Shown here: in pieces, positions 12,007 through 45,675 of the stretch | Numbering within the stretch: the stretch's first letter is position 1 | Layout of the letters: each line of letters opens with the position of its first letter | Assembly (NCBI GenBank): GCA_026770705.1 | Contig: JANJGN010000012.1 | Location: forward strand, 133,858,001-133,922,000 | DNA: 64,000 bases | Direction: 5' to 3' | DNA from: Isurus oxyrinchus | Taxonomy: Eukaryota | The notes under the pieces: generated by a model | Databases searched by the model: none | What the model saw: only the letters and a program-made list of their open reading frames with translations | Told to the model about the DNA's origin: nothing | Made by a program: the position numbers and the translations under genes

Positions 12007-13880
12007 CAGGACTAAACCCCTGTCTCTGATCTTCATTCAACTCAAACATGGTCTTTATTACTGACTTACTCAGTGAGTCTGATGTGGGGAGGTGGTGGGG
12101 GGAGGGGGGTGTTGGAAATGAGTCCAGAACAAGGGGCATCATCTTCAAATTAAAGCCATGCCATTCCAGGGAAATATCAAGAAGAGATTTTTCACACAAA
12201 CAGCAGTGGAATTCTAGAATTCTCTCCACCAAAAAGCGGTTGAGGTAAGGAATCAAGTGAAATCTTCAAAACTGAGGTTGACAGAGCTTTGTTGAGAAAG
12301 GGGATTAAGGGTTATGTAACCACAGTATGTAAATGAAGTTATGATATAGATCAGCCACATCTAATCAAAGAGCCGGCTCAAGGGGCTAAACGATCTCCTC
12401 CTGTTCCGACTGTCCATGTCCAAGAGCCCGCAGGGCTCCCGACTAAACCAGAGATGACATTGCATTGGTAATCGCCCCAAACTATGAAAGTCACAGGGCT
12501 CTGCATCAGAAGCTGGTTTTCCAGGACTCTCAGGGATATACAGACAATATGACTATACAGCACCTGTCATAGCCCCAGAATATCCCCAAACCACTTTATA
12601 ATCAATTCAGTACTCTGAAGAGTAGTCACTGTTGCAGTGTATGAAATGCATATGGACATTCTGGATTTCAGAGATCAGGGAATGTTTATGGAGGGGGTCA
12701 GCAGCGAAGCGGTAATGTTATTGGACCAATACTCCAAAGGTCTGGGTTAATTCTCCAGAGAGATAAGTTTAAATCTCATCAACGAAGACCTTGACAGGGC
12801 AGGCACCCACGTTGTTCCCCTGGATGGGGAATCTAGAACTAGAATTTAATACCGGGTCAAGGAGAAATTCCTTCACTCAGAGTTGTGAATCTTTGGAACT
12901 CTCTGCCCCAGAGGATTGTGGATGCTCCAATGTTAAGTATATTTAAGGCTGGGACAGACAGATTTTTGGTCTCTTGAAATCAAGGAGGTATGGGGGTGGG
13001 AGGGAGAATGGGCATGAAAATGAAGTGGAGGCTGGAGATCAGCCATGGTTGTATTGAATGGAGGAGAAGGCTCGAGAAGCTGTATGAGCTCCCCCTGCTC
13101 CTATTTCTTATGTTCTTACCATGGAAGCTGGGGGAATTTTAATTCAGTTAAGCAATACAACTGGAACAAAGAAGCCAGTCTCATTAATAATGAATTTTTA
13201 AAAAGGACTATAAACTTAAGGAGTAGAGTCCACAGTGAGATGGGATTAGGGACCAATAATCTTTCATTTTCTTCATTCCACGTTCTGACCAATGTTACAA
13301 ATTTCAGCAGAAGCAACAGTGTTCTGCACATCAAGGTTACATCCAGGCAAAGCAATACAGGACACAGGAGCTGGACCACACTGCCCGTTGCTATGGTGGG
13401 TGCCGCACGTCTTAGAGAAGCAGGTGGACTGAGGTAGACATTACATCTTATAGATGACAGGTCCTTGACAGCACCTGATCCACATGATTCCCGGACTGTT
13501 CCCCACCGCTTGACGGGATTGGGGGGGAGATTTTCCGGAATAGTTTATTCCTTATCGGCTCCGAATTTTCTTTTTCCTTTCCCAGGAGATTACATGCAGC
13601 AGGGCGGTGTGAGGGGTAAGTGAGGGATGAGGCATCTAGTCAGGACACTCCAGTCATTCTGGTGGAGCATAGGATTGATGCTGCTCTCTCCCAGCCCACA
13701 GTCGTCTGAGTCTTTGGAATTGAAAGTGTGCAAAATGACAAACAGTTTTCCCTCAGCAGCTGTTTCAGGGAATGTCTCGCTGGCTGGAGGCGAGTTGAAT
13801 GAAATCCCTTCGCTTTGGCTCCACATGCCCTATCAGGGCCAGTTGTTTGATGATGTTTGACACAGAATACCTGTACTCAC

Positions 13881-13977
13881 CTTCTGACAGTGTGGACAGG
13901 GGTAGTTGTGAGATGCTGTCTGGAGGTGATGCTCAAGGGCTTCGGGAGTGGAATATTTACTCAAACACCTCGAACAT
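13881..13977 (-). CDS. ZNF341: ZNF341 exon 11
   Basis: tttacag|A TGT...AAG|gtgagt; reads [32 protein letters not shown]; 97 nt. Confidence 0.95.
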
Positions 13978-14682
13978 CTGTAAACCAAATAAATAAGAGG
14001 AGGAATTAGGCTTTCAGATGCCTGAAGAGCAGCAACGAGGTTCTCCATGTTGTCCTGGCTAATATTTATCCATCACTAAAATGGATTATCTCTGGTCATT
14101 ATAATGGTCACTATCTCATTGCTGTTTGGGGATATCTTGCGGTTTGCCAATTGGCTGTTGCATTTCCTACATTACAATACACCGCCTGATTCAGATGCAA
14201 GTTTTTCTTTTTAACTTGAACAGTGACAATCAGTTACACAGCTGCTCCCTGCACCGACTTCACTCTTGTGTTCCCAGGTTGTTTTTTTTTTTTGCAAATC
14301 CAGCATTAAGACTGACGATGCAGGACACAGAAGTGAAGTGAATCAGCCGTGGCGAGGGGACAAGGTTACAAGGTTACCAACTTTGTGGACAGTAAAGGGA
14401 GGTGGGGGAATGCGACGGGTTGGGGAGGTGGGGATTGGGGGGGTGGGGGGTGTGCAGGTGAGGTGGGGAAGTCAAGAGGATGATGAACAATTTCAGTTCT
14501 AAGTCCTGAAAAGAGTGGGCAATGGTGAGACAAACCTCAGCTGTAACACAGTGAGGACTGCAGGGAGGGTTTACAGGATAGAACCCGGGAGCCTGAAAAT
14601 GAGCTGTGTTGCTTTGGGGGAACATGCAGTTGGGGGAAGCCGGGACATGGGATCTAACGACTGGAAAGTGCAGCTGGCTCAC

Positions 14683-14891
14683 CTGTAAAACGTGGGGCAC
14701 TTCTTAGGCGCCTGTTGGGGGTAGAGGTTGTGAGAATACTGGTGCACCCCCAACTCGTACAGAGATGGGAAGATCTTACTGCAGAGATGGCAGCGATAAG
14801 TTATCTCATCGTCGTGGTTCTTGATGTGTTCAACAAACTCCTCGAGCTTCACGAATGTCTGTGTGCAATTCTTCACCACACACTTGTACAC
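14683..14891 (-). CDS. ZNF341: ZNF341 exon 10
   Basis: ctgtcag|GTG...TAC AG|gtgagc; reads [26 protein letters not shown]...[23 protein letters not shown]...; 209 nt. Confidence 0.96.
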
Positions 14892-15374
14892 CTGACAGGG
14901 GAGAACATATAACAGCATAAGAAATAGAAGCAGGAGTAAGCATTTGGCCTCTTGAGTTTACTCCGCCAATCAACAAGATTATGGCTAATTTTCTATGTCA
15001 ACTCCATCTTCCTGCACTATCCCCATATCCTTTAATTCGCCCTGTGCCCAAAAACCTATCAATCTCTGTCTTGAATATACTCAACAACTGAACATCCACA
15101 GATCTCTGGGGTAGAGAATTCCAAAGATTCCCAATCCTCTAAGTGAAGAAATTTTAATTCATCTCAGTTCTAAATGGCCAACCCCTTCTTCTGAGGCTGA
15201 GAGTCAGTGATCTAAATTCTCCAGTCAGGTGCACCCAGGGGGTCTCTGTTTAACATCTCTTCCGAAAGATGGCACCTCTGACAGTGCGCACTCCCTCAGT
15301 ACTGCAGTGGGAGCGTCCGTCTGGATTATGGGCTCAAACCTCTTAGCTCTATTGCAAAGCAAAATTTGTTACTT

Positions 15375-15458
15375 GCATGGGAAAGCCTAATTCCTCTTAT
15401 TACTTATTTTATTTACAGGTGTTCGAGTAAATATTCCACTCCCAAAGTCTTCAAACAT
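15375..15458 (+). pseudogene. Inverted partial copy of the ZNF341 intron 10 / exon 11 junction
   Basis: gaaagcctaattcctc...tttacag gtgttcgagtaaatattccactccc matches the reverse complement of 13929-14021 with a 9-nt deletion; translates YRCSSKYSTPK versus [14 protein letters not shown]. Confidence 0.9.
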
Positions 15459-15685
15459 TTTTTCAACATTTACTCCTTTAGAATTTTATATTTTTCAATG
15501 AGATCATCTCTCATTTCTCTGAACTCTGGGGAATACAGGCCTAATCTCCTCAACCGCTCCTCACTGGACAATCCTTCCATCACAGGAAACAGATGAACGT
15601 TTCCTCGAGGGCAAATATGTCCTTCCTTAAGTAAGGAGACCAAAACTGCACACAGTACTGCATGTTTGGTCTTTTTAAAATTATT

Positions 15686-16785: not shown

Positions 16786-18678
16786 AGTGAATGGAATCTC
16801 CTGTTCATTCAAGAAGGAAATAGGGGGAGTACAGGGCCAACATATTCCAGTAAAGATAAAGGGTGGCACCAACAAATCCAGGGAACCCCGGATGTTGAGG
16901 GATATACAGGATTGGATAAAGAGAAAAAGGGAGGCTTATGGCAGATACCGAGGGTTCTAAACAGCAGAAGCCCTAGAGGAGTATAGAACACGTAGGAGGG
17001 AACTTAAAAAGGAAATTAGGAGAGCAAAAAGGGGGCATGAAAAAACAGCGGCAGGTAAAATAAAGGAAAATCCAAAGTTATTTGATAAGTACATTAAGAG
17101 TAAGAGGATAACTAGGGAAAGAGTAGGGCTCATTAAGGACCATTGTGGTAATTTGTGTGTGGAGCTGGAAGATGTAGGTAGGGTTCTAAATGAATACTTA
17201 GTGTCAGTGTTCACAAGTGAGAGGGACGCCATAGGTATGGAAATCAGGCAGAAGGACAGTGATGTAATTAAAGAAATTAGCAAAGAAAGGGAGGAGGTTC
17301 TAAATGCTCTGGCAGGATTAAAAGTAGATAAATCTCCAGGCCTGGATGAAATGTATCCCAGGCTGTTGAAGGAGCCAAGGGTGGAGACAGCAGGAATACT
17401 GGCAATAATTTTCAATACCTCTCTGGCAACAGGAGAGGTGCCAGAGGACTGGAGGACAGCCAATGTGGTACCATTATTTAAGAAAGGAGGAAGGGATAAA
17501 TCAGGGAACTACAGGCCAGTCAGTCTAACCTCAGTGATGTGGAAACTATTGGAAACAATTCTGAGGTACAGAATTAATCTACACTTGGAGAGGCAGGGAT
17601 TAATCAAGGACAGTCAGCATGGTTTTGTTAAGGGGAGAGCAAGTCTGAACAATTTGATTGAATTTTTCGAAGATGTGACCAGGTGTGTAGATGAGGGCAA
17701 TGCATCTGACATAGTCTACTTGGACTTCAACAAGGCTTTTGATAAGGTCCCACATGGGAGACTGATACCGAAGGTAAGAGCTCATGGGATCCAAGGCAAT
17801 TTGGCAAATTGGATCCAGAATTGGCTGAGTGGCAGGAAGCAGAGGGTGATGGTTGAGGGGTGCTTTTGTGACTGGATGCCTGTGTCCAGTGGGGTTCCAT
17901 AGGGATTGGTGTTGGGTCTTTGCTGTTTGTGGTATACATAAACGATTTAGATGTGAATGTAGGAGGCTTGATCAGTAAGTTAGCGGATGGCACGAAAATT
18001 GGTGAGGTGGTAAATAGTGAGGAGGATAGCCTTAGATTACAGGAGGATATAGACGGGCTGATCAGTGGCAAATGGACTTTAATGCGGATAAGCGTGAGGT
18101 GATGCAGGACAAACAAGGCACGGGAATACACGATGAATGGTAGGACCCTGGGAAGTACCTTGGTGTGCATGTCCACCGGTCCTTTTACGGTAGTGGGACA
18201 GTTAGGTAAGGTAGTTAAGAAGGCATATGGGATACTTGCCTTTATTAGCTAAGGCATAGAATATAAGAGCAGGGAGGTTATGCTGGAACTGTATTAAACA
18301 CTGGTTAGGCCACAGCTAGAGTATTGTGTGCAGTTCTGGAATCCACATTATAGGAAAGATGTGATTGCATTAGAGAGTGCAGAGGAGATTTACCAGGATG
18401 TTGCCTGGGCTGGAGAGTTTAGAGAGGATGTGAGGAAGAATTTTTTCACCCAGAAGGTGGTGGGAATCTGGAACTCACTGCCTGAAAGGGTGGTAGAGGC
18501 AGATACCCTCATAACATTGAAGTAGTATTTGGATGTGCCCTTGAGATGCCATGGCATACAAGGCTATGGGCCTAGTGCTGGAAAATGGGATTAGAATGGT
18601 TAGGTACTTGTTTGACCAGCGCAGACTCGATGGGCCGAAGGGCCTTTTTCTGTGCTGTAGACCTCTATGACTCTATGA
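16786..18678 (+). mobile_element. CR1 LINE, 5'-truncated, reverse transcriptase region
   Basis: ORF 17153-17902 contains KSPGLDEMYPRLLKE, PEDWRTANVVPLFKKG, NYRPVSLTS, YLDFNKAFDKVPH; continues LFVVYINDLD; ends in a (ctctatga)2 tail. Confidence 0.95.
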
Positions 18679-20239: not shown

Positions 20240-20271
20240 CTTTAAATGTAAAGGAGAGAGAGTGGGAGGAG

Positions 20272-23020
20272 GGAAAGAGAGAGAGCGAGCGGGAGAGAGA
20301 GCGAGCGAGCGGGAGGAGAGAGAGAGCGAGCGAGCGGGAGGAGAGAGAGAGAGCGAGCGGGAAGAGAGAGAGAGAGCGAGCGGGAAGAGAGAGAGAGAGC
20401 GAGCGGGAAGAGAGAGAGAGAGCGAGCGGGAAGAGAGAGAGAGAGCGAGCGGGAAGAGAGAGAGAGAGCGAGCGGGAAGAGAGAGAGAGCGAGCGGGAAG
20501 AGAGAGAGAGAGCGAGCGGGAGGAGAGAGAGAGAGCGAGCGGGAGGAGAGAGAGAGAGAGCGAGCGGGAGGAGAGAGAGAGAGAGCGAGCGGGAAGAGAG
20601 AGAGAGCGAGCGGGAAGAGAGAGAGAGAGAGCGAGCGGGAAGAGAGAGAGAGAGCGAGCGGGAAGAGAGAGAGAGCGAGCGGGAAGAGAGAGAGAGAGCG
20701 AGCGGGAGGAGAGAAAGAGAGAGCGAGCGGGAGGAGAGAGAGAGAGAGCGAGCGGGAAGAGAGAGAGAGAGCGAGCGGGAAGAGAGAGAGAGAGCGAGCG
20801 GGAAGAGAGAGAGCGAGCGGGAAGAGAGAGAGCGAGCGGGAAGAGAGAGAGAGCGAGCGGGAGGAGAGAGAGAGAGAGCGAGCGGGAGGAGAGAGAGAGA
20901 GAGCGAGCGGGAAGAGAGAGAGAGAGAGCGAGCGGGAGGAGAGAGAGAGAGAGCGAGCGGGAAGAGAGAGAGAGAGAGCGAGCGGGAAGAGAGAGAGAGA
21001 GCGAGCGGGAAGAGAGAGAGAGAGCGAGCGGGAGGAGAGAGAGAGAGCGAGCGGGAGGAGAGAGAGCGAGAGCGAGCGGGAAGAGAGAGAGAGAGCGAGC
21101 GGGAGGAGAGAGAGAGAGAGCGAGCGGGAGGAGAGAGAGAGAGAGCGAGCGGGAGGAGAGAGAGAGAGCGAGCGGGAGGAGAGAGAGAGAGAGCGAGCGG
21201 GAGGAGAGAGAGAGAGAGCGAGCGGGAGGAGAGAGAGAGAGCGAGCGGGAGGAGAGAGAGAGAGAGCGAGTGGGAAGAGAGAGAGAGAGCGAGCGGGAGG
21301 AGAGAGAGAGAGCGAGCGGGAGGAGAGAGAGAGAGCGAGCGGGAGGAGAGAGAGAGCGAGCGGGAGGAGAGAGAGAGCGAGCGGGAGGAGAGAGAGAGAG
21401 AGCGAGCGGGAGGAGAGAGAGAGAGCGAGCGGGAGGAGAGAGAGAGAGCGAGCGGGAGGAGAGAGAGAGAGCGAGCGGGAGGAGAGAGAGAGAGCGAGCG
21501 GGAGGAGAGAGAGAGAGAGCGAGCGGGAGGAGAGAGAGCGCGAGCGGGAGGAGAGAGAGAGAGAGCGAGCGGGAGGAGAGAGAGAGAGCGAGCGGGAGGA
21601 GAGAGAGAGAGCGAGCGGGAGGAGAGAGAGAGAGAGAGCGAGCGGGAGGAGAGAGAGAGAGAGAGCGAGCGGGAGGAGAGAGAGAGAGAGAGCGAGCGGG
21701 AGGAGAGAGAGAGAGCGCGAGCGGGAGGAGAGAGAGAGAGAGCGCGAGCGGGAGGAGAGAGAGAGAGCGCGAGCGGGAGGAGAGAGAGCGCGAGCGGGAG
21801 GAGAGAGAGAGAGAGAGCGAGCGGGAGGAGAGAGAGAGAGAGCGAGCGGGAGGAGAGAGAGAGAGAGCGAGCGGAAGAGAGAGAGAGAGCGCGAGCGGGA
21901 GAGAGAGAGAGAGCGAGCGGGAGAGAGAGAGAGAGAGAGCGAGCGGGAGGAGAGAGAGAGAGAGCGAGCGGGAGGAGAGAGAGAGAGAGCGAGCGGGAGG
22001 AGAGAGAGAGAGAGAGCGGGAGGAGAGAGAGAGAGAGAGAGCGGGAGGAGAGAGAGAGAGAGCGAGCGGGAGGAGAGAGANNNNNNNNNNNNNNNNNNNN
22101 NNNNNNNNNNNNNNNNNNNNNNNNNNNNNNNNNNNNNNNNNNNNNNNNNNNNNNNNNNNNNNNNNNNNNNNNNNNNNNNNNNNNNNNNNNNNNNNNNNNN
22201 NNNNNNNNNNNNNNNNNNNNNNNNNNNNNNNNNNNNNNNNNNNNNNNNNNNNNNNNNNNNNNNNNNNGAGAGCGAGCGGGAGGAGAGAGAGAGAGAGAGA
22301 GCGAGCGGGAGGAGAGAGAGAGAGAGAGCGAGCGGGAGGAAAGTGAGAGAGAACGAGCGGGAGGAAAGTGAGAGAGAGCGAGCGGGAGGAAAGTGAGAGA
22401 GAGCGAGCGGGAGGAGAGAGAGAGCGAGCGGGAGGAGAGAGAGAGCGAGCGGGAGGAGAGAGAGAGCGAGCGGGAGGAGAGAGAGAGCGAGCGGGAGGAG
22501 AGAGCGAGCGAGCGGGAGGGGAGAGCGAGCGAGCGGGAGGGGAGAGAGAGAGAGCGAGCGGGAGGAGAGACAGAGAGCGAGCGGGAGGAGAGAGACAGAG
22601 AGCGAGCGGGAGGAGAGAGACAGAGAGCGAGCGGGAGGAGAGAGAGAGAGAGCGCGAGCGGGAGGAGAGAGAGAGCGAGCGGGAGGAGAGAGAGAGAGAG
22701 CGAGCGAGAGGAGAGAGAGAGCGAGTGGGAGGAGAGAGAGAGCGAGTGGGAGGAGAGAGAGAGCGAGTGGGAGGAGAGAGAGAGCGAGTGGGAGGAGAGA
22801 GAGAGCGAGTGGGAGGAGAGAGAGAGAGCGAGTGGGAGGAGAGTGAGAGTGGGAGGACAGAGACAGAGAGAGAGAGTGGGAGGACAGCGAGGGGGGAGTG
22901 GAAGGAGAGAGAGAGAGAGAGAAAGAGAGGGAGTAGGAGAGAGAGGGTAGGAGGAGAGAGAAAGAGAGTGGGAGGGGAGAGAAAGAAAGTGGGAAGAGAG
23001 AGAGTTGGAGAGAGAACAAG
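20272..23020. repeat. Purine-rich compound repeat (GA)n-GCGAGCGGGA(G/A), containing a 187-N gap at 22081-22267
   Basis: Directly visible; source of the 700-970 aa low-complexity ORFs. Confidence 0.97.
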
Positions 23021-25479
23021 AGATAACAAGGACCTGTTAAAGACATGTGGCAATGGTCTCATTCACCATCCTCCCAATTCACCCTCACCCCCGTCACCCC
23101 ATATTCCATTGATCTGATGCAGTTAGAATCTCGAAATACTGTCCACACTCCCCACTCTCACTTTCCCAAGTTTGCCATCCTGTAGGTTTTCCAGTTCTGT
23201 ACCCACTGTACAGCTGACAAGTACCACAGATGTAGGCCATTCAGGCCCTCAGGTCTGTCCCATCATTTAACAGCTGTTCTTTATCCTAACTTCATCCATC
23301 CGCTTTGGCTCCATATCCCTGAACCAACAAAACGCTAAGCATCTCAGATTTAAAGTGACTCCATGAACTCCGACACGATGCTTTTTGAGAGAGAGAGAGT
23401 TTCACATTTCTTCCAACCCTTTGCATGAAGAAGCTTTTCCTAATTTCTCTCCTGGACGGATTAGCTCTGGTTTTAAGGTTATATTATTTTGTCCTGCACT
23501 GTAAATAGGAACTGGAACGAGAGTGCTCATAAAACCCACTTCATGTGAAACCCCCACCCACAGATATAGAGACAACTTCCAACCACACTCCGCTGAAGCG
23601 GGAAGTGAATGGATATTGTCCAACCCAGTGTGTCACCCAGTCATTCACATTCAGAAAGTAATTAGAAATCCAGGCTAAAATAGCTCCCATCACATCCTCA
23701 AGGATGTTTTGCTTTGTAAGGTTCTATACAAATACAAATTATTGCCATGTTTTAAAACCAATTAAGTCAATGTTATAATGTAGGAAACATCTGCACACAG
23801 CAAGCTCCCACAAGTAATAAGATAACACCAGATAGCCTGTTGGTGGAAGGATAAGTATTGGCCAGGACACCAGGGAGAACTCCCCTGTTCTGTCTTCAAA
23901 ATAGAGCTATGGGATCTGGTATGGTCACCGGACGGACATGGCAGAGAGGGTCTCAGTTTAACATCTCATCCAAAAGACAGCAGCTCTGGCGGCGTAGACT
24001 CCCTCAGTCCTGCACTCGGAGTGTCAGCTTGGATTCTGTGCCACTCTTTTTAGCAGTATGGGCACCACAGCACAGAACTCAATTCAACACCAGTTGGCAA
24101 ACTGCATTCGAAGCACGGGAGGGCTGGTGCAAGAAAAGGAAATAAGTATCACTAGATCCTGTAAGAAGTGCTGGTCGGAGCTGAGGCAGGTTTTTTGGGC
24201 TGAGTACGGCAGCTTTATTACACAGAATTTACACAACAGTAACAGGCTTTTCGGCCTACATGATCCAAGCTGGTGTTTCTCCTCAATGTTAGCTCTCTTC
24301 CACCCGTCTTCATCTTATCCTATCGGCATATCCTTCTATTCCTTTCTACCTCATACGCTTGTTTAACTTTCCCTTCAATGTATCTATATAATTTGCCTCA
24401 ACCACTCGCTGTGGTAGCGAATTCCACATTCTCACCACTCCCTGGGTAAAGAGGTTTCTCCTGAATTCCCCACAATTTCTGCCTCTCTTATTTTTTACAG
24501 CCCCTTAATTTAGGATTCTCTCACAATTAAAAACAGCTTCTCCAAGTCTCCGCTGGCAAAAATCCTTTATAACCGCAAACATATAATAAGAAAGAGGAGT
24601 AGACCATAGGGCTCCTTGATCTATATTTCCTGCACTTTTCCAGCCGCTCCCTATAATGCCCCAAAATCTCTCTCTCTTGGCCTCGAGTATACTCAACGAC
24701 TAAGCATCCACAACCCTCTCAAGTGAAAATCCTCATCCCAGCCTTCAATGGGCAACCCCCTTATTCTGAAACTGTGGCCCCCCATGTTCTACATTCGCCA
24801 GCCGGAGGTGGGGAGGGGAGAAGAAACCCCTACGTCTACCCTGGCAAACCCCTTCGGAATCTTGCAAAGGAATTAGCCATTGTCCACAAGGAACAACCGG
24901 CGTCTCTCCCCATTGCAGAGACACGATTGGTTCTTCGCTTGAGGGGCAACACTCCACATCAAGCCTGGGGCAAGGCAAGGAGACAGGCCAGGCCTCCACG
25001 AGCTACCACAGAAGGGATAAGGGTTGAATTTGCTCCATTGTCATTCTGCATCACACTCTTGCCAACAGACTTAATGAGCCTCTAAGAATCTTGCATTCTT
25101 TATACTTTCATGGGATGTGGGTGTCGACGGCATTTGCTGCCCATACCTAATTGCCCTTGAACTGAGTGGCTTGCTAGGCCATTTCAGAGGGCAGTTACTG
25201 TGGTTCTGTATTCACGGGTAGGCCAGACCAGGTAAGGACAGCAGATTTCCTTCCCTGAGGGACATTAGTGAACCAGATGGGTTTTTATGACAAACGATGG
25301 TACCTTCGTGGTCACCATTAAGACTAGTTTTTAATTCCAAATTTTATTAATTGAATTTAAATTCCCCCAGCTGCCGTGGTGGGATTTGAACCAATGTCCC
25401 CTGGGCATTAGCCTGGGCCTCTGGGTTACTGATCCAGTGATAATACCACTACATCACCGTCTCCCCTTAAATAATTCTC

Positions 25480-30721: not shown

Positions 30722-30780
30722 CTGCAGAAGCAGCACAAAGAGCCGTGACTGCAGACAACCGCAACAGAGTGTATAGCGCA

Positions 30781-31420
30781 GCTCAAACTCCCCCCCCCCG
30801 CAGCTCACACTCCCCCCCGGCCCGGCTCACACTCCCCCCCGGCCCGGCTCACACTCCCCCCCGGCCCGGCTCACACTCCCCCCCGGCCCGGCTCACACTC
30901 CCCCCGGCCCGGCTCACACTCCCCCCCGGCCCGGCTCACACTCCCCCCCGGCCCGGCTCACACTCCCCCCCGGCCCGGCTCACACTCCCCCCCGGCCCGG
31001 CTCACACTCCCCCCCGGCCCGGCTCACACTCCCCCCCGGCCCGGCTCACACTCCCCCTCCCTCTGTAGTTCAAACTCCCAGTCACCTCCCCCCCCACCCC
31101 ACCACCTGCTTCACACTCCTCCCCCTGCCCGCCTCAAACTGCACCCCCCCGCAGTTCAAACTCCCCCCCCACCACCGCAGCTCAAACTCCCCCCCACCCC
31201 CGCAGCTCAAACTCCCCCCCGGCCCGGCTCACACTCCCCCTCCCTCTGTAGTTCAAACTCCCAGTCACCTCCCCCCCCCACCCCACCACCTGCCTCACAC
31301 TCCTCCCCCTGCCCGCCTCAAACTGCCCCCCCCCCCGCAGCTCAAACTCCCCCCCGCCGCAGCTCACACACACCTCCCCCCCCGCCCCACCGCCCGCCTC
31401 ACACTCTTCTACCCCCCCCA
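30781..31420. repeat. C-rich ~23-bp minisatellite (CCCGGCCCGGCTCACACTCCCCC) followed by a ~120-bp direct repeat
   Basis: Tandem units from 30800 to 31060; 31038-31154 is repeated at 31221-31340. Confidence 0.93.
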
Positions 31421-32189
31421 CCACTCATAAAACCCAACAGGCAGCTGCTCTTCAGTAAAGAGATGACCTGAGGGGTGACCTGAGGGTAGAGGTAGCAACA
31501 ACCTTTGCGCCTATGGGGGTGGGGGAGTCCACAAGTAGGGGGCCATCAATATAAGACAGTCACTAATAAATCCAATCGGGAATTCAGGAGAAATGTCTTT
31601 ACCCGGAGAGTGAGGCGAATGTGGAACTGGCTCACACAGGGAGCGATTGAGGTGAATATTATCGATGGATTTAAGGGGAAGTTGGATAAGCAAGAGGGAG
31701 AAAGGGATAGAAGGACATGATGATGGGGTGAGACGAAGAGGGGGTGGGAGAAGGCTCGTGGGGAGCGGAACCTCTGATATAGACCAGCGAGGATCCTGTG
31801 TCTGTGCTTCAGAAACTGTAACTCTCCACTCCATAAGATTACAAGAGAAACAGGACAGGAAAGGGTTAATTCAAAATCACTTCAATCGAAACCGCGACAA
31901 ACAGAGCAGGTCAGTCAATTCTCCAACTGATGTACACCCTGCTTCCAAGAGTGAGAAACACAGAAAGAGGAGGCTCCCAGAGATCCCACAACTAGTGAGG
32001 AAAACAGTTGGAGTCTGTGACTTGGATCCGAACTGAACGGGAAACCCAAAATTCCGGGGCTCTGGGGAGTTAAAATGCACCATCACACAGGGATATCGGC
32101 CAATAGGGAGCAATGGGATTAGTCCGAGGGATAGGGAGGGAGTGCGGAAGGGATTTCATCAGAGGGAGAGAGAGCAGTGAAGTGGGATT

Positions 32190-33696
32190 TAATCACTGAG
32201 AGAAAGAGCGGGAGCAGTGGGATTTGGTCACTGGGAAAGGGAGGGGGGGCAGTGGGATTTAGTCACTGGGAGAGAGAGGGGGGGCAGTGGGATTTAGTCA
32301 CTGGGAGAGAGAGCGGGTGCAGTGGGATTTAGTCACTGAGAGAGAGAGCGGGGGCAGTGGGATTTAATCACTAAGAGAGAGCAGGGGCAGTGGGATTTAG
32401 TCACTGGGAGAGAGAGCGGGTGCAGTGGGATTTAGTCACTGGGAGAGAGAGTGGGTGCAGTGGGATTTAGTCACTGGGAGAGAGAGCGGGTGCAGTGGGA
32501 TTTAGTCACTGGGAGAGAGAGCAGGAGCAGTGGGATTTAGTCAATGGGAAAAGGAGGGGGGGCAGTGGGATTTAGTCACTGGGAAAGGGAGCGGGGGCAG
32601 TGGGATTTAGTCACTGGGAGAGAGAGTGGGGGCCGTGGGATTTAATCACTGGGAGAGAGAGCGGGGGCAGTGGGATTTAGTCACTGGGAAAGGGAGCGGG
32701 GGCAGTGGGATTTGGTCACTGGGAGAGAGAACGGGGGCAGTGGGATTTAGTCACTGGGAAAGGGAGCGGGGGCAGTGGGATTTAGTCACTGGGAAAAGGA
32801 GCAGGAGCAGTGGGATTTAGTCACTGGGAAAAGGAGCGGGGGCAGTGGATTTAGTCACTGGGAGAGAGCGGGGGCAGTGGGATTTAGTCACTGGGAAAAG
32901 GAGCAGGGGCAGTGGGATTTAGTCACTGGGAGAGAGAGCAGGGCAGTGGGAGTTAGTCACTGGGAGAGAGTGGGGGCAGTGGGATTTAGTCACTGGGAGA
33001 GAGCGGGGGCAGTGGGATTTAGTCACTGGGAAAGGGAGCGGGGGCAGTGGGATTTAGTCACTGGGAGAGAGAGCAGGGCTGTGGGATTTAGTCACTGGGA
33101 GAGAGAGCGGGGGCAATGGGATATAGTCACTGGGAGAGAGAGCGGGGGCAATGGGATATAGTCACTGGGAGAGAGCAGGGCAGTGGGATTTAGTCACTGG
33201 GAAAGGGAGTGGGGACAGTGGGATTTAGTCACTGGGAGAGAGCGGGGGCAGTGTGATTTAGTCACTGGGTGAGAGAGCGGGTGCAGTGGGATTTAGTCAC
33301 TGGGAAAGGGAGCGGGAGCGGTGGGATTTAGTCACTGGGAGAGAGAGCAGGGCAGTGGGATTTAGTCACTGGGAGAGAGAGCAGGGGCAGTGGGATTTAG
33401 TCACTGAGAGAGAGAGCGGGGGCAGTGGGATTTAGTCAATGGGAAAGGGAGGGGGGCAGTGAGATTTAGTCACTGGGAAAGGGACCGGGGGCAGTGGGAT
33501 TTAGTCACTGGGAAAGAGAGCGGGGGCAGTGGGATTTAGTCACTGGGAAAGGGAGCGGGGGCAGTGGGATTTAGTCACTGGGAGAGAGAGCGGGAGCAAT
33601 GGGATTTAGTCATTGGGAGAGAGAGCAGGGCAGTGGGATTTAGTCACTGGGAGAGAGAGCGGGTGCAGTGGGATTTAGTCACTGGGAAAGGGAGCA
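32190..33696. repeat. 33-35-bp minisatellite (GCAGTGGGATTTAGTCACTGGGAGAGAGAGCGGGG)
   Basis: More than 40 tandem units running into the assembly gap. Confidence 0.97.
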
Positions 33697-33796
33697 NNNN
33701 NNNNNNNNNNNNNNNNNNNNNNNNNNNNNNNNNNNNNNNNNNNNNNNNNNNNNNNNNNNNNNNNNNNNNNNNNNNNNNNNNNNNNNNNNNNNNNNN
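33697..33796. other. Assembly gap (100 N, probably unsized)
   Basis: Run of exactly 100 N between two different tandem arrays. Confidence 0.98.
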
Positions 33797-35050
33797 GAGT
33801 GAGGGAAGTGAGGAAGGAGAGGGGTGAGTGAGGGAAGGAGAGGGGTGAGTGAGGGAAGGAGAGGGGTGAGTGAGGGAAGGAGAGGGGTGAGTGAGGAGGA
33901 GAGGGGTGAGTGAGGGAAGGAGAGGGGTGAGTGAGGGAAGGAGAGGGGTGAGTGAGGGAAGGAGAGGGGTGAGTGAGGGAAGGAGAGGGGTGAGTGAGGG
34001 AAGGAGAGGGGTGAGTGAGGGAAGGAGAGGGGGTGAGTGAGGGAAGGAGAGGGGTGAGTGAGGGAAGGAGAGGGGTGAGTGAGGGAAGGAGAGGGGTGAG
34101 TGAGGGAAGGAGAGGGGTGAGTGAGGGAAGGAGAGGGGTGAGTGAGGGAAGGAGAGGGGTGAGTGAGGGAAGGAGAGGGGTGAGTGAGGGAAGGAGAGGG
34201 GTGAGTGAGGGAAGGAGAGGGGGTGAGTGAGGGAAGGAGAGGGGTGAGTGAGGGAGAGAGGGAGGTGAGTGAGGGAAGGAGAGGGGTGAGTGAGGGAAGG
34301 AGAGAGGGGTGAGTGAGGGAAGGAGAGGGGTGAGTGAGGGAAGGAGAGAGGGTGAGTGAGGGAAGGAGAGAGGGTGAGTGAGGGAAGGAGAGGGGTGAGT
34401 GAGGGAAGGAGAGGGTGAGTGAGGGAAGGAGAGGGTGAGTGAGGGAAGGAGAGGGTGAGTGAGGGAAGGAGAGGGTGAGTGAGGGAAGGAGAGGGATGAG
34501 TGAGGGAAGGAGAGGGTGAGTGAGGGAAGGAGAGGGTGAGTGAGGGAAGGAGAGGGTGAGTGAGGGAAGGAGAGGGTGAGTGAGGGAAGGAGAGGGTGAG
34601 TGAGGGAAGGAGAGGGTGAGTGAGGGAAGGAGAGGGTGAGTGAGTGAGGGCAGGAGGGGGAGTGAGTGAGGGAAGGAGGGGGAGTGAGTGAGGGCAGGAG
34701 GGGGAGGAGTGAGTGAGGGAAGGAGGGGGAGTGAGTGAGGGAAGGAGGGGGGAGTGAGTGAGGGAAGGAGGGGGGAGTGAGTGAGGGGAGGGGGGAGTGA
34801 GTGAGGGAAGGAGGGGGGAGTGAGTGAGGGAAGGAGGGGGGAGTGAGTGAGGGAAGGAGGGGGAGTGAGTGAGGGAAGGAAGGGGTGAGTGAGGGAAGGA
34901 GGGGGGGTGAGTGAGGGAAGGAGGGGGGGTGAGTGAGGGAAGGAGGGGGGGGTGAGTGAGGGAAGGAGGGGGTGAGTGAGGGAAGGAGAGGGTGAGTGAG
35001 GGAAGGGGGGATGAGTGAGGGATGGAGGTGGATGGAGTGAGTGAAGGAGG
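33797..35050. repeat. 20-23-bp purine-rich minisatellite (GAGTGAGGGAAGGAGAGGGGT)
   Basis: Directly visible; source of the PSLT/FPHS ORFs. Confidence 0.97.
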
Positions 35051-35842
35051 GGGGTGAAGTGGGTGGGTGGGGGAGAGGGGTGAAATCGCTCTCCAGTGGT
35101 AAAGGATTAACCCCCCCCCGCCCCAATCCCGCAGTTTTCGGAGACTCTGACAGAACACGAGGCCATTTGGCCCATTCCTGCTGAGTCAGCTCTCTGACCG
35201 GCTGGTTTCATGGATCCCGGTTCTCCCGCTCGGTCTCCCTCGGGCCTGAAAACTTGTCCTTTTGAAGCATTTATTCCACATCACAACAACTTACAGCATT
35301 TCCCCCACCGCCACCCACCCAAGCATTTATTCCACATCACAACAACTTACAGCATTTCCCCCACCACCCCCCCCCCCTCCTCCTCCACTTCTCCAACCCA
35401 CCCCCACCCCCCAAACTCGATTCTCCACCGGCCAAACACACTCCCCCGTGACCCCCAGGGCTGACCTTCCTTCTCAAAGACCCCCCCCACCCGACACAGA
35501 GAGAGAGAGAGAGAGATCCCATCAGGACAACCACACCAGACACTCTCCCAGCCTCAGCCCAGGCTGGACAGGGAGGGGGTCAAACATCCTCGACTGTTAC
35601 CAGGCCCTGGCCTTACATTTCAGCTTCTCTCTGTGGGTCTGGTTAATAGTAAAACCCCTCGGCCTACGACTCATCACCTATTGGTTCTCGGTTAAGTGTC
35701 AGCTTCAACTCATCACCCGTGTCTGTCTGCTCGCTGCCTTGGAGACAACACTGCGCACCGCAGCTCAGCATCTAACACGCTGGCCCGGGGACTGGAGTCA
35801 CGAAAACAGGCCGCTCGACCCCAGCCAACCCCTCTCACTCAC

Positions 35843-44405: not shown

Positions 44406-45029
44406 TTACCCTATCCCTTGACCAGCGAAGGCACCTGAGTGTCTGTCTTTCACTCATCTCCATGTATGAGCTGCTTCTTCTATAGACCCTTCACCATGCC
44501 AAATGTCTTTGTGGATTTAGCCCCTCATCAGCATCTGGGACTTCCTGGGCCTTTTCTAGCTCTTGTTCCCTGAGCTGTGCTAATTGGCGACAGGACCTTC
44601 TGCTCTTCAGGGATGGTGGTGTAGTGGTTGGTGTTGCTGGACTAGTAATCCCAAGGCCCAGGTCAATGCTGTAGGGACATGGGTTCAAATCCCACCACAG
44701 TGGCTGGCAGAATTTGAGCTCCGTTAAAAACAGAATTGAAAGCTAGTCTTGGTCATGGTGACCACGAAATTGTTTTTAAAGAACCAAGCTGGTTCAGTAA
44801 TGACCTTCAGGGAAGGAAATCTGCTGTCCTTGTCCAATCTACCTGCCCTACATGTGACTCCAGAACCACAGCAATGTGGTTGACTCTGAAAGCAATTAGG
44901 GATGGGCAACAAACGCTGGCAATGCCCACATCCCATAAAGAAATCAAAGCTGTCAGGAAGACAGTGCTCCCTGCATTCTCCACTCTTAGAGGCCCTTCAA
45001 GCCTGCTCTACCATTCATTATGATCATGG

Positions 45030-45675
45030 CTCCTGCTTTCTCCCCATACCCTTTGATCCCTTTCGTCCCAAGAGCTATATCTAACTCCTTCTTGAAAACA
45101 TACAATGTTTTGGTCTCAGCTACTTTCTGTGGTAACGAATTCCACAGGCTCACCACTCCCTGGGTGAAGAAATTTCTCCTCATCTCAGCCCTAAATGGTC
45201 TACCCCATATCCTCAGACTGTGACCCCTGGTTCTGGACTCCCCCACCATCGGGAACATCCTTCCTGCATCTACCCTGTCTAGTCCTGTTAGAATTTTATA
45301 GGTTTCTATGAGATCCCCCCTCATTCTTCTGAACTCCAGCGAATATAATCCTAATCGACTCAATCTCTCCTCATATGTCAATCCCGCCATCCCAGGAATC
45401 AGTTGGGTAAACCTTCCCTGCACTCCCTCTATAGCAAGAACATCCTTCATCAGATAAGGAGACCAAAACTGCATACAATATTCCAGGTGTGGTCTCACCA
45501 AGGCCCTGTAAAAATGCAGCAAGACACCCCTGTTCCTATACTTGAATCCTCTGGCTATGAAGGCCAACATACCATTTGCCTTCTTTATTGCCTGCTGCAC
45601 CTGCATGCTTACCTTCAGCGACTGGTGTACAAAGACACCCAAGTCTTGTTGCACATTCCCCTCTCTCAATTTATA
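45030..45675 (-). mobile_element. CR1 LINE 3' fragment
   Basis: ORF 44986-45714: DLGVFVHQSLK...YRALVRPHLEYCMQFWSP...RMRGDLIETYKI...TRGHSL...RRNFFTQGVVSLWNSLP. Confidence 0.95.

Follow-up and report, generated by a model that had tools for sequence, protein, structure and literature searches.

The 64,000-nucleotide stretch of Isurus oxyrinchus DNA analyzed here (the window) carries the ZNF341 gene on its minus strand. In a protein search supporting this identification, 20 of 22 matches to exon 9 bear a name, most of them designated "zinc finger protein 341," with the closest matches in sharks and rays, and a shark ZNF341 homologue aligns to the locus exon by exon. The exon numbers 9–12 used below were obtained by counting backward from the final exon on the assumption of a 15-exon gene (PMC10620851), and they agree with those of the first-pass annotation. 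Large intronic tandem arrays of low complexity lie at 20254–23022, 30777–31409, and 32106–35083, and one of them, which starts 15 nt ahead of the acceptor of exon 9, acts as that acceptor's pyrimidine tract. Intron 9 also contains a longer coding fragment antisense to the gene (16795–18650), which we take to be LINE-like and which is covered by many repeat-derived RNA contigs.

Exons 10 and 11 together total 306 nt and, as the first-pass annotation of this DNA had stated, joining exon 9 to exon 12 keeps the reading frame and skipping either exon alone shifts it. By computation of the frame, a 9–11 join meets an immediate stop, and a 10–12 join, in which exon 11 is skipped, runs into a stop after 58 nt of exon 13, which is 112 nt long. 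Because this second stop lies upstream of two junctions, the 10–12 product is likely a decay substrate. Skipping both exons would remove 102 amino acids, comprising three complete zinc fingers plus half of one more. Exons 10 and 11 contribute exactly 102 amino acids in 39 of 42 homologues that span them, from chimaera to teleosts and caecilians; by this protein comparison the in-frame pair is ancestral and predates the copy described below, which makes its frame symmetry no sign of design. The end of exon 10 (14683–14689) and the end of intron 10 (13978–13984) share an identical 7 nt, such that the spliced exon 10–11 junction recreates the acceptor context and its alignment is ambiguous by 7 nt.

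Table 1. Features of the ZNF341 exon 10–11 region and two low-copy inverted pairs (positions in the window unless prefixed by a locus).
Feature	Position	Strand	Remarks
Repeat fragment, intron 11	12865–13118		inverted relative to 14910–15154; 68% identity, 259 nt; predicted competitor duplex
ZNF341 exon 11	13977–13881	(-)	97 nt; first ~43–49 nt form the exonic part of the template; spliced contig 13879–13977
Intron 10 3' end	14021–13978	(-)	intronic template: predicted branch point A 14006, pyrimidine tract, AG 13979–13978
tRNA-headed SINE-like repeat, 3' half, intron 10	14023–14213	(+)	consensus positions 270–422; 2 nt from template end
ZNF341 exon 10	14891–14683	(-)	209 nt; within 1.35-kb loop of predicted duplex; spliced RNA contig
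Host repeat, left piece	14910–15229		continuous with right piece in intact copy 44991–45495
SINE-like repeat, 5' part, in insert	15230–15352	(-)	consensus positions 120–227; counterpart absent from intron 10
22 nt with no match elsewhere in window	15353–15374		probably ancestral intron 10 sequence
Inverted copy of intron 10/exon 11 junction	15375–15452	(+), antisense in pre-mRNA	9-nt gap at AG/exon border
Host repeat, right piece	15453–15672		possible microhomology: its first ~6 nt match host as well as template
Low-copy inverted pair	L104:4923–5087		partner ~1.1 kb away
Low-copy inverted pair	L071:7399–7562		partner ~1.5 kb away

The presence in intron 9 of an inverted copy of the exon 11 acceptor, first reported by eye, was confirmed by blastn (13929–14021 against 15375–15458, E 1e-12); 14 of the 84 aligned positions are substituted, and the copy carries a gap of 9 nt. 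The template consists of the last 44 nt of intron 10 and the first 49 nt of exon 11 (13977–13929). Since the final ~6 nt of the match (15453–15458) fit the surrounding repeat as well, the copy proper ends near 15452 and differs from its template by 11–12 substitutions in addition to the gap, which falls at the junction and sits between two 9-nt near-repeats. The exonic differences read E>K, A>V, and L>F at residues that are invariant in 10 of 10 cartilaginous-fish representatives, and therefore the changes arose in the copy. Viewed as a coding cassette for the opposite strand, the copy has non-synonymous changes and is missing two conserved finger residues. A chance match is ruled out by the E value, and the best of 300 shuffled arms reached -36 kcal/mol. 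The arm was found at two places in its own 4.98-Gb genome by a DNA search that skips very common words, and a 19-mer common to both arms has exactly two genome occurrences, which rules out the arm as a transposon. The original description of unique sequence free of transposons thus holds for the 78-nt arm; it fails for the copied unit as a whole (~15230–15452), which includes half a SINE.

The copy forms the right end of an insert of ~222 bp, made up of the SINE 5' piece, the 22 nt, and the arm. This insert interrupts an old repeat, presumably a LINE-like 3' fragment. Against the intact copy of that repeat (at 45243–45260), host sequence resumes within 0–2 nt, indicating that the insert entered at a single point and cost the host repeat little or nothing, and neither poly(A) nor a target-site duplication was seen at the insert borders. 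A retrocopy or processed pseudogene is ruled out by this lack of a poly(A) tail and target-site duplication and by the intron 10 sequence within the insert. The SINE piece in the insert and the one in intron 10 are consecutive and non-overlapping on a consensus of 29 genome copies that were picked on the intron 10 half (20 of the 29 being long enough for a divergence scale, 8.8–27.6%), and the same arrangement was obtained with a first consensus biased by the choice of copies for their resemblance to the piece in intron 9. In minus-strand orientation, the insert runs from template through the 22 nt to the SINE 5' part; in plus-strand orientation, intron 10 runs from template to SINE 3' part. 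The arm and the complementary SINE halves together point to inverted copying of nearby sequence. Possible microhomology at the junctions (5 nt on the left, 4 of 6 nt on the right) is short and is read through ~15% divergence. In a related shark (organism B), the intron 10 SINE has ~11–14 extra nt at 14180–14182, their placement differing slightly between two runs.

The insert likely stems from ancestral intron 10 and the beginning of exon 11, duplicated in inverted orientation from this local template. Intron 10 would once have carried a longer SINE, and a replication or repair template switch across ~1.3 kb, of the MMBIR/FoSTeS type, would have placed a near-perfect arm of ~220 bp in intron 9. 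The 5' half of the SINE may later have been lost from intron 10, which would have left ~78 bp of the possible duplex, and slippage between the two near-repeats may have deleted the junction segment of the copy. The insert would then preserve a piece of ancestral intron 10 that intron 10 itself has lost; the ancestral state, with the whole SINE in intron 10, is seen in no species in a comparison of two close ones. In the published account of microhomology-mediated templated insertions (MMB-TI), which are flanked by microhomology, inverted insertions of nearby template occur as germline variants and build up in the germline if harmless (PMC8421209). The ZNF341 insert is similar, but it is old and ~1.3 kb separate it from its template, whereas MMB-TI were searched for within 100 bp of the template (PMC8421209).

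The proposal that the copy could pair with the exon 11 acceptor and mask it was borne out in silico as far as pairing potential is concerned. The duplex of arm and template is predicted at -101 kcal/mol; a perfect copy would reach -175, and shuffled arms lie near -25. When 2 kb are folded, pairing with the copy has a mean probability of 0.77 over the arm, and this approaches 1 over the predicted branch point (assigned by consensus) and the greater part of the pyrimidine tract. The AG stays partly unpaired (0.53, 0.13), and the opening bases of exon 11 lie within the 9-nt bulge. Neighboring registers are within 0.7 kcal/mol, and one of these pairs the AG, with the first exon base adjoining the bulge. 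The helix appears in the minimum-energy fold of all three nascent-length transcripts (63–72 pairs). When 12865–13118 is added, it is displaced (0 pairs) by a 187-pair helix between repeats of introns 9 and 11, in calculations that allow nested folds only. This competing pair (14910–15154/12865–13118) brackets exactly exons 10 and 11, has a predicted duplex of -234 versus -87 when shuffled, and has a geometry like that of the Alu pair of TBXT (discussed below), suited to in-frame joint skipping or to an exon 10–11 circle; it belongs to a set of 83 inverted pairs counted over 464 kb. On nascent RNA, what remains of the helix is predicted to be able to close over the branch point and pyrimidine tract, but it would usually lose out to the removal of intron 9, to assembly of the spliceosome, or to the competing repeat pair. 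Any effect would then be a leak, whether exon 11 skipping, a decay substrate, or in-frame skipping of exons 10 and 11.

Splicing of these exons could be followed in organism B, in run X17, which is presumed to be RNA and shows a GT–AG joint; runs X15, X16, and X20 have too little exon cover. A 1055-nt contig from X17 (depth 103) contains the canonical joint of exons 11 and 10 and continues into exon 9, and an overlapping 1074-nt contig (depth 80) leaves exon 11 at its end, enters exon 12, and continues unbroken. At the point where the two contigs part lies an unspliced contig of intron 11 (depth 4.2). Inclusion of exons 10 and 11 is therefore the assembled form in X17, as seen in one informative run of one relative and in contigs rather than reads. 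As far as joints were listed, the X17 contigs show the canonical 9–10–11–12 order; a minor skip could be missed, because contigs drop rare forms and decay depletes a frameshifted skip. In a 9.2-kb comparison with four presumed RNA runs, repeat contigs dominate, and none of the 15 joints listed is an exon joint, with a further 182 lying beyond the listing; exon 9 has almost no cover in that comparison, which carries no weight either way. At the protein level, 47 sequences were examined, of which 42 span exons 9–12 and 5 are partial; all 42 have 100–110 amino acids between exons 9 and 12, and none of the 42 is an isoform lacking exons 10 and 11.

The arm has diverged at what appears to be the neutral rate. 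It differs from its template at 11 of 77 positions (14.3%), and the unpaired SINE piece in the same insert differs from its consensus at 16 of 107 (15.0%) and the intron 10 SINE at 21 of 142 (14.8%), so that the arm is no more conserved than its neutral neighbors (Fisher p = 1.0 for arm versus SINE pieces, a test of little power that sets a two-branch distance over 78 nt against a one-branch distance). The 78 positions hold 12 differences: 5 transitions that preserve a G–U pair, 3 transitions of A–C type, and 4 transversions, with no enrichment of G–U (p = 0.73). The observed duplex energy of -93.6 compares with -94.9 +/- 6.6 in 2000 neutral simulations, 58% of which were equally or more stable.

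The earlier suggestion that other sharks be checked for the copy was followed up in organism B, which shares about half of its words with this genome (organism A). The copy is present there with the same layout, in two of three DNA runs, the third having no cover at that place. Over 233 nt, the copy region differs at 2 positions, of which one (15379) belongs to the arm, and the template arm shows no difference in the two runs covering it, with no insertion at 14021. Between A and B, the arm has 1 difference in 78 positions against an intron background of 11 in 781 (p = 0.74, at low power), and no compensatory change was found between these two close species. Judged in substitution units, the insert would be older than the A–B split by a factor of 10–20, and its sharing is therefore expected without selection. 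Sequence comparison thus gives no sign of selection on the arm, in tests of little power.

These results favor, with a probability of roughly 0.7, the view that the copy is a tolerated fossil decaying neutrally rather than a kept splicing switch, since the one RNA assembly that covers the exons clearly shows them joined in the usual way. The functional reading of the first-pass annotation is not supported, and the outcomes it had named as refuting largely appeared: divergence is at the neutral level, compensatory change is lacking between the two sharks, and joins are canonical in a relative that bears the copy. Against a tolerated fossil stand the strength of the predicted duplex, which covers the branch point and is present in all nascent folds, and the persistence of the copy for 10–20 times the A–B divergence. 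If the fossil reading is correct, a predicted duplex of -100 kcal/mol over a branch point need not block splicing.

We also think it probable that the copy is a tolerated natural counterpart of the pathogenic inverted duplications of CHM and MANBA. In CHM, as in ZNF341, the gene's own exon and intron sequence, around exon 12, was inverted into a nearby intron, and the report describes junction microhomology, a proposed FoSTeS/MMBIR origin, and a predicted pre-mRNA hairpin over splice signals (PMC8756506). The CHM copy is 1,752 bp, recent, downstream of the exon, and family-specific, with skipping observed (PMC8756506), whereas the ZNF341 copy is ~222 bp with a pairing part of 78 nt at ~85%, lies upstream, occurs in two species, and accompanies observed inclusion. 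Likewise, the duplication of MANBA exons 8–11 is a template-switch inversion within an intronic repeat, with a hairpin proposed as the cause of the multi-exon skipping that was seen (PMC6549551); at 13.1 kb it is perfectly complementary and pathogenic, in contrast to the short, old, eroded, and tolerated copy in ZNF341. An inverted acceptor copy, a lesion behind some human splicing diseases, would on this comparison be able to become fixed and tolerated. In literature of incomplete coverage, we found no report on the ZNF341 locus or on a fixed natural inverted-acceptor copy.

A related but unlikely account is that the duplication was harmful and was then tamed, the fresh arm of ~220 bp having caused skipping, and the SINE loss and 9-nt gap having been favored for freeing exon 11. 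An early harmful phase of the original arm is plausible, because skipping accompanies the inverted exon duplications of CHM and MANBA (PMC8756506, PMC6549551) and was induced in mouse Tbxt by engineered perfect reverse-complement segments of 220–297 bp (PMC10901737; see also PMC13019027 and PMC10691357). Loss of ZNF341 in humans causes disease (PMC10620851). Both indels shorten or open the duplex, and the gap falls exactly at the AG/exon border. The near-repeats around the gap, however, mark a likely slippage site, the intron 10 deletion could have extended no further without removing the branch point, and the substitutions are no more destabilizing than the neutral simulations.

In humans, ZNF341 is a regulator of STAT3. 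A functional masking duplex, in which a hidden acceptor would yield decay-targeted skipping of exon 11 that tunes ZNF341 or an isoform without the 102 amino acids, is quite improbable. It has in its favor a strong predicted helix on splice signals, found in nascent folds and common to two species, and the stop that an exon 11 skip would place in exon 13 ahead of two junctions. The arms are ~1.4 kb apart, near the 1,448 bp of the AluY/AluSx1 pair of TBXT, which also acts in the pre-mRNA of a transcription factor with a possible in-frame skip (PMC10901737). In TBXT, however, the exon lies between two arms that are intronic repeats, and deletion demonstrated the skipping (PMC10901737, PMC13019027), while in ZNF341 the acceptor itself serves as one arm and no skipped product was observed. 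Against a masking function, the duplex shows no signal of conservation or compensation, inclusion is the assembled form, no such isoform occurs among the 42 spanning proteins, the frame symmetry is older than the copy, and in the longer nested fold the helix gives way to the repeat pair (187 pairs versus 0). We would place at similarly long odds a template-switch accident fixed long ago that now throttles ZNF341 by tissue- or elongation-dependent skipping. The outcome in that case would be decay or a four-finger-deleted isoform, and unique gene sequence would have supplied a splicing switch in one step, with thousands of local inversions as raw material; regulated skipping, if true, would show that long-range splicing structures can originate in one step with no need for a pair of transposons. 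It is extremely improbable that the copy guides ADAR editing of exon 11 or its first base, a reading suggested by the long bulged duplex and by the register that sets the first exon base next to the bulge, since the X17 exon 11 contig shows 0 differences over 99 nt and an X16 contig over the copy region 1 in 216 nt, in contigs that show majority changes only.

In 464 kb around the window, 83 inverted pairs of at least 50 nt were found within 5 kb of each other, and 4 of these were nearly single-hit locally in both arms: the ZNF341 copy, one repeat family (40 scored of 150 candidates), and two pairs that appear low-copy, with 2 and 1 genome matches. These two pairs have 188–200 aligned nt at 72–76% identity. 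Inversions of this sort thus occur about once per 150 kb here, in a search that skips common words, and an occasional one falling over an acceptor would be expected. The spacers of the three pairs, at 1.1, 1.35, and 1.5 kb, hint at a recurring template-switch distance in this genome.
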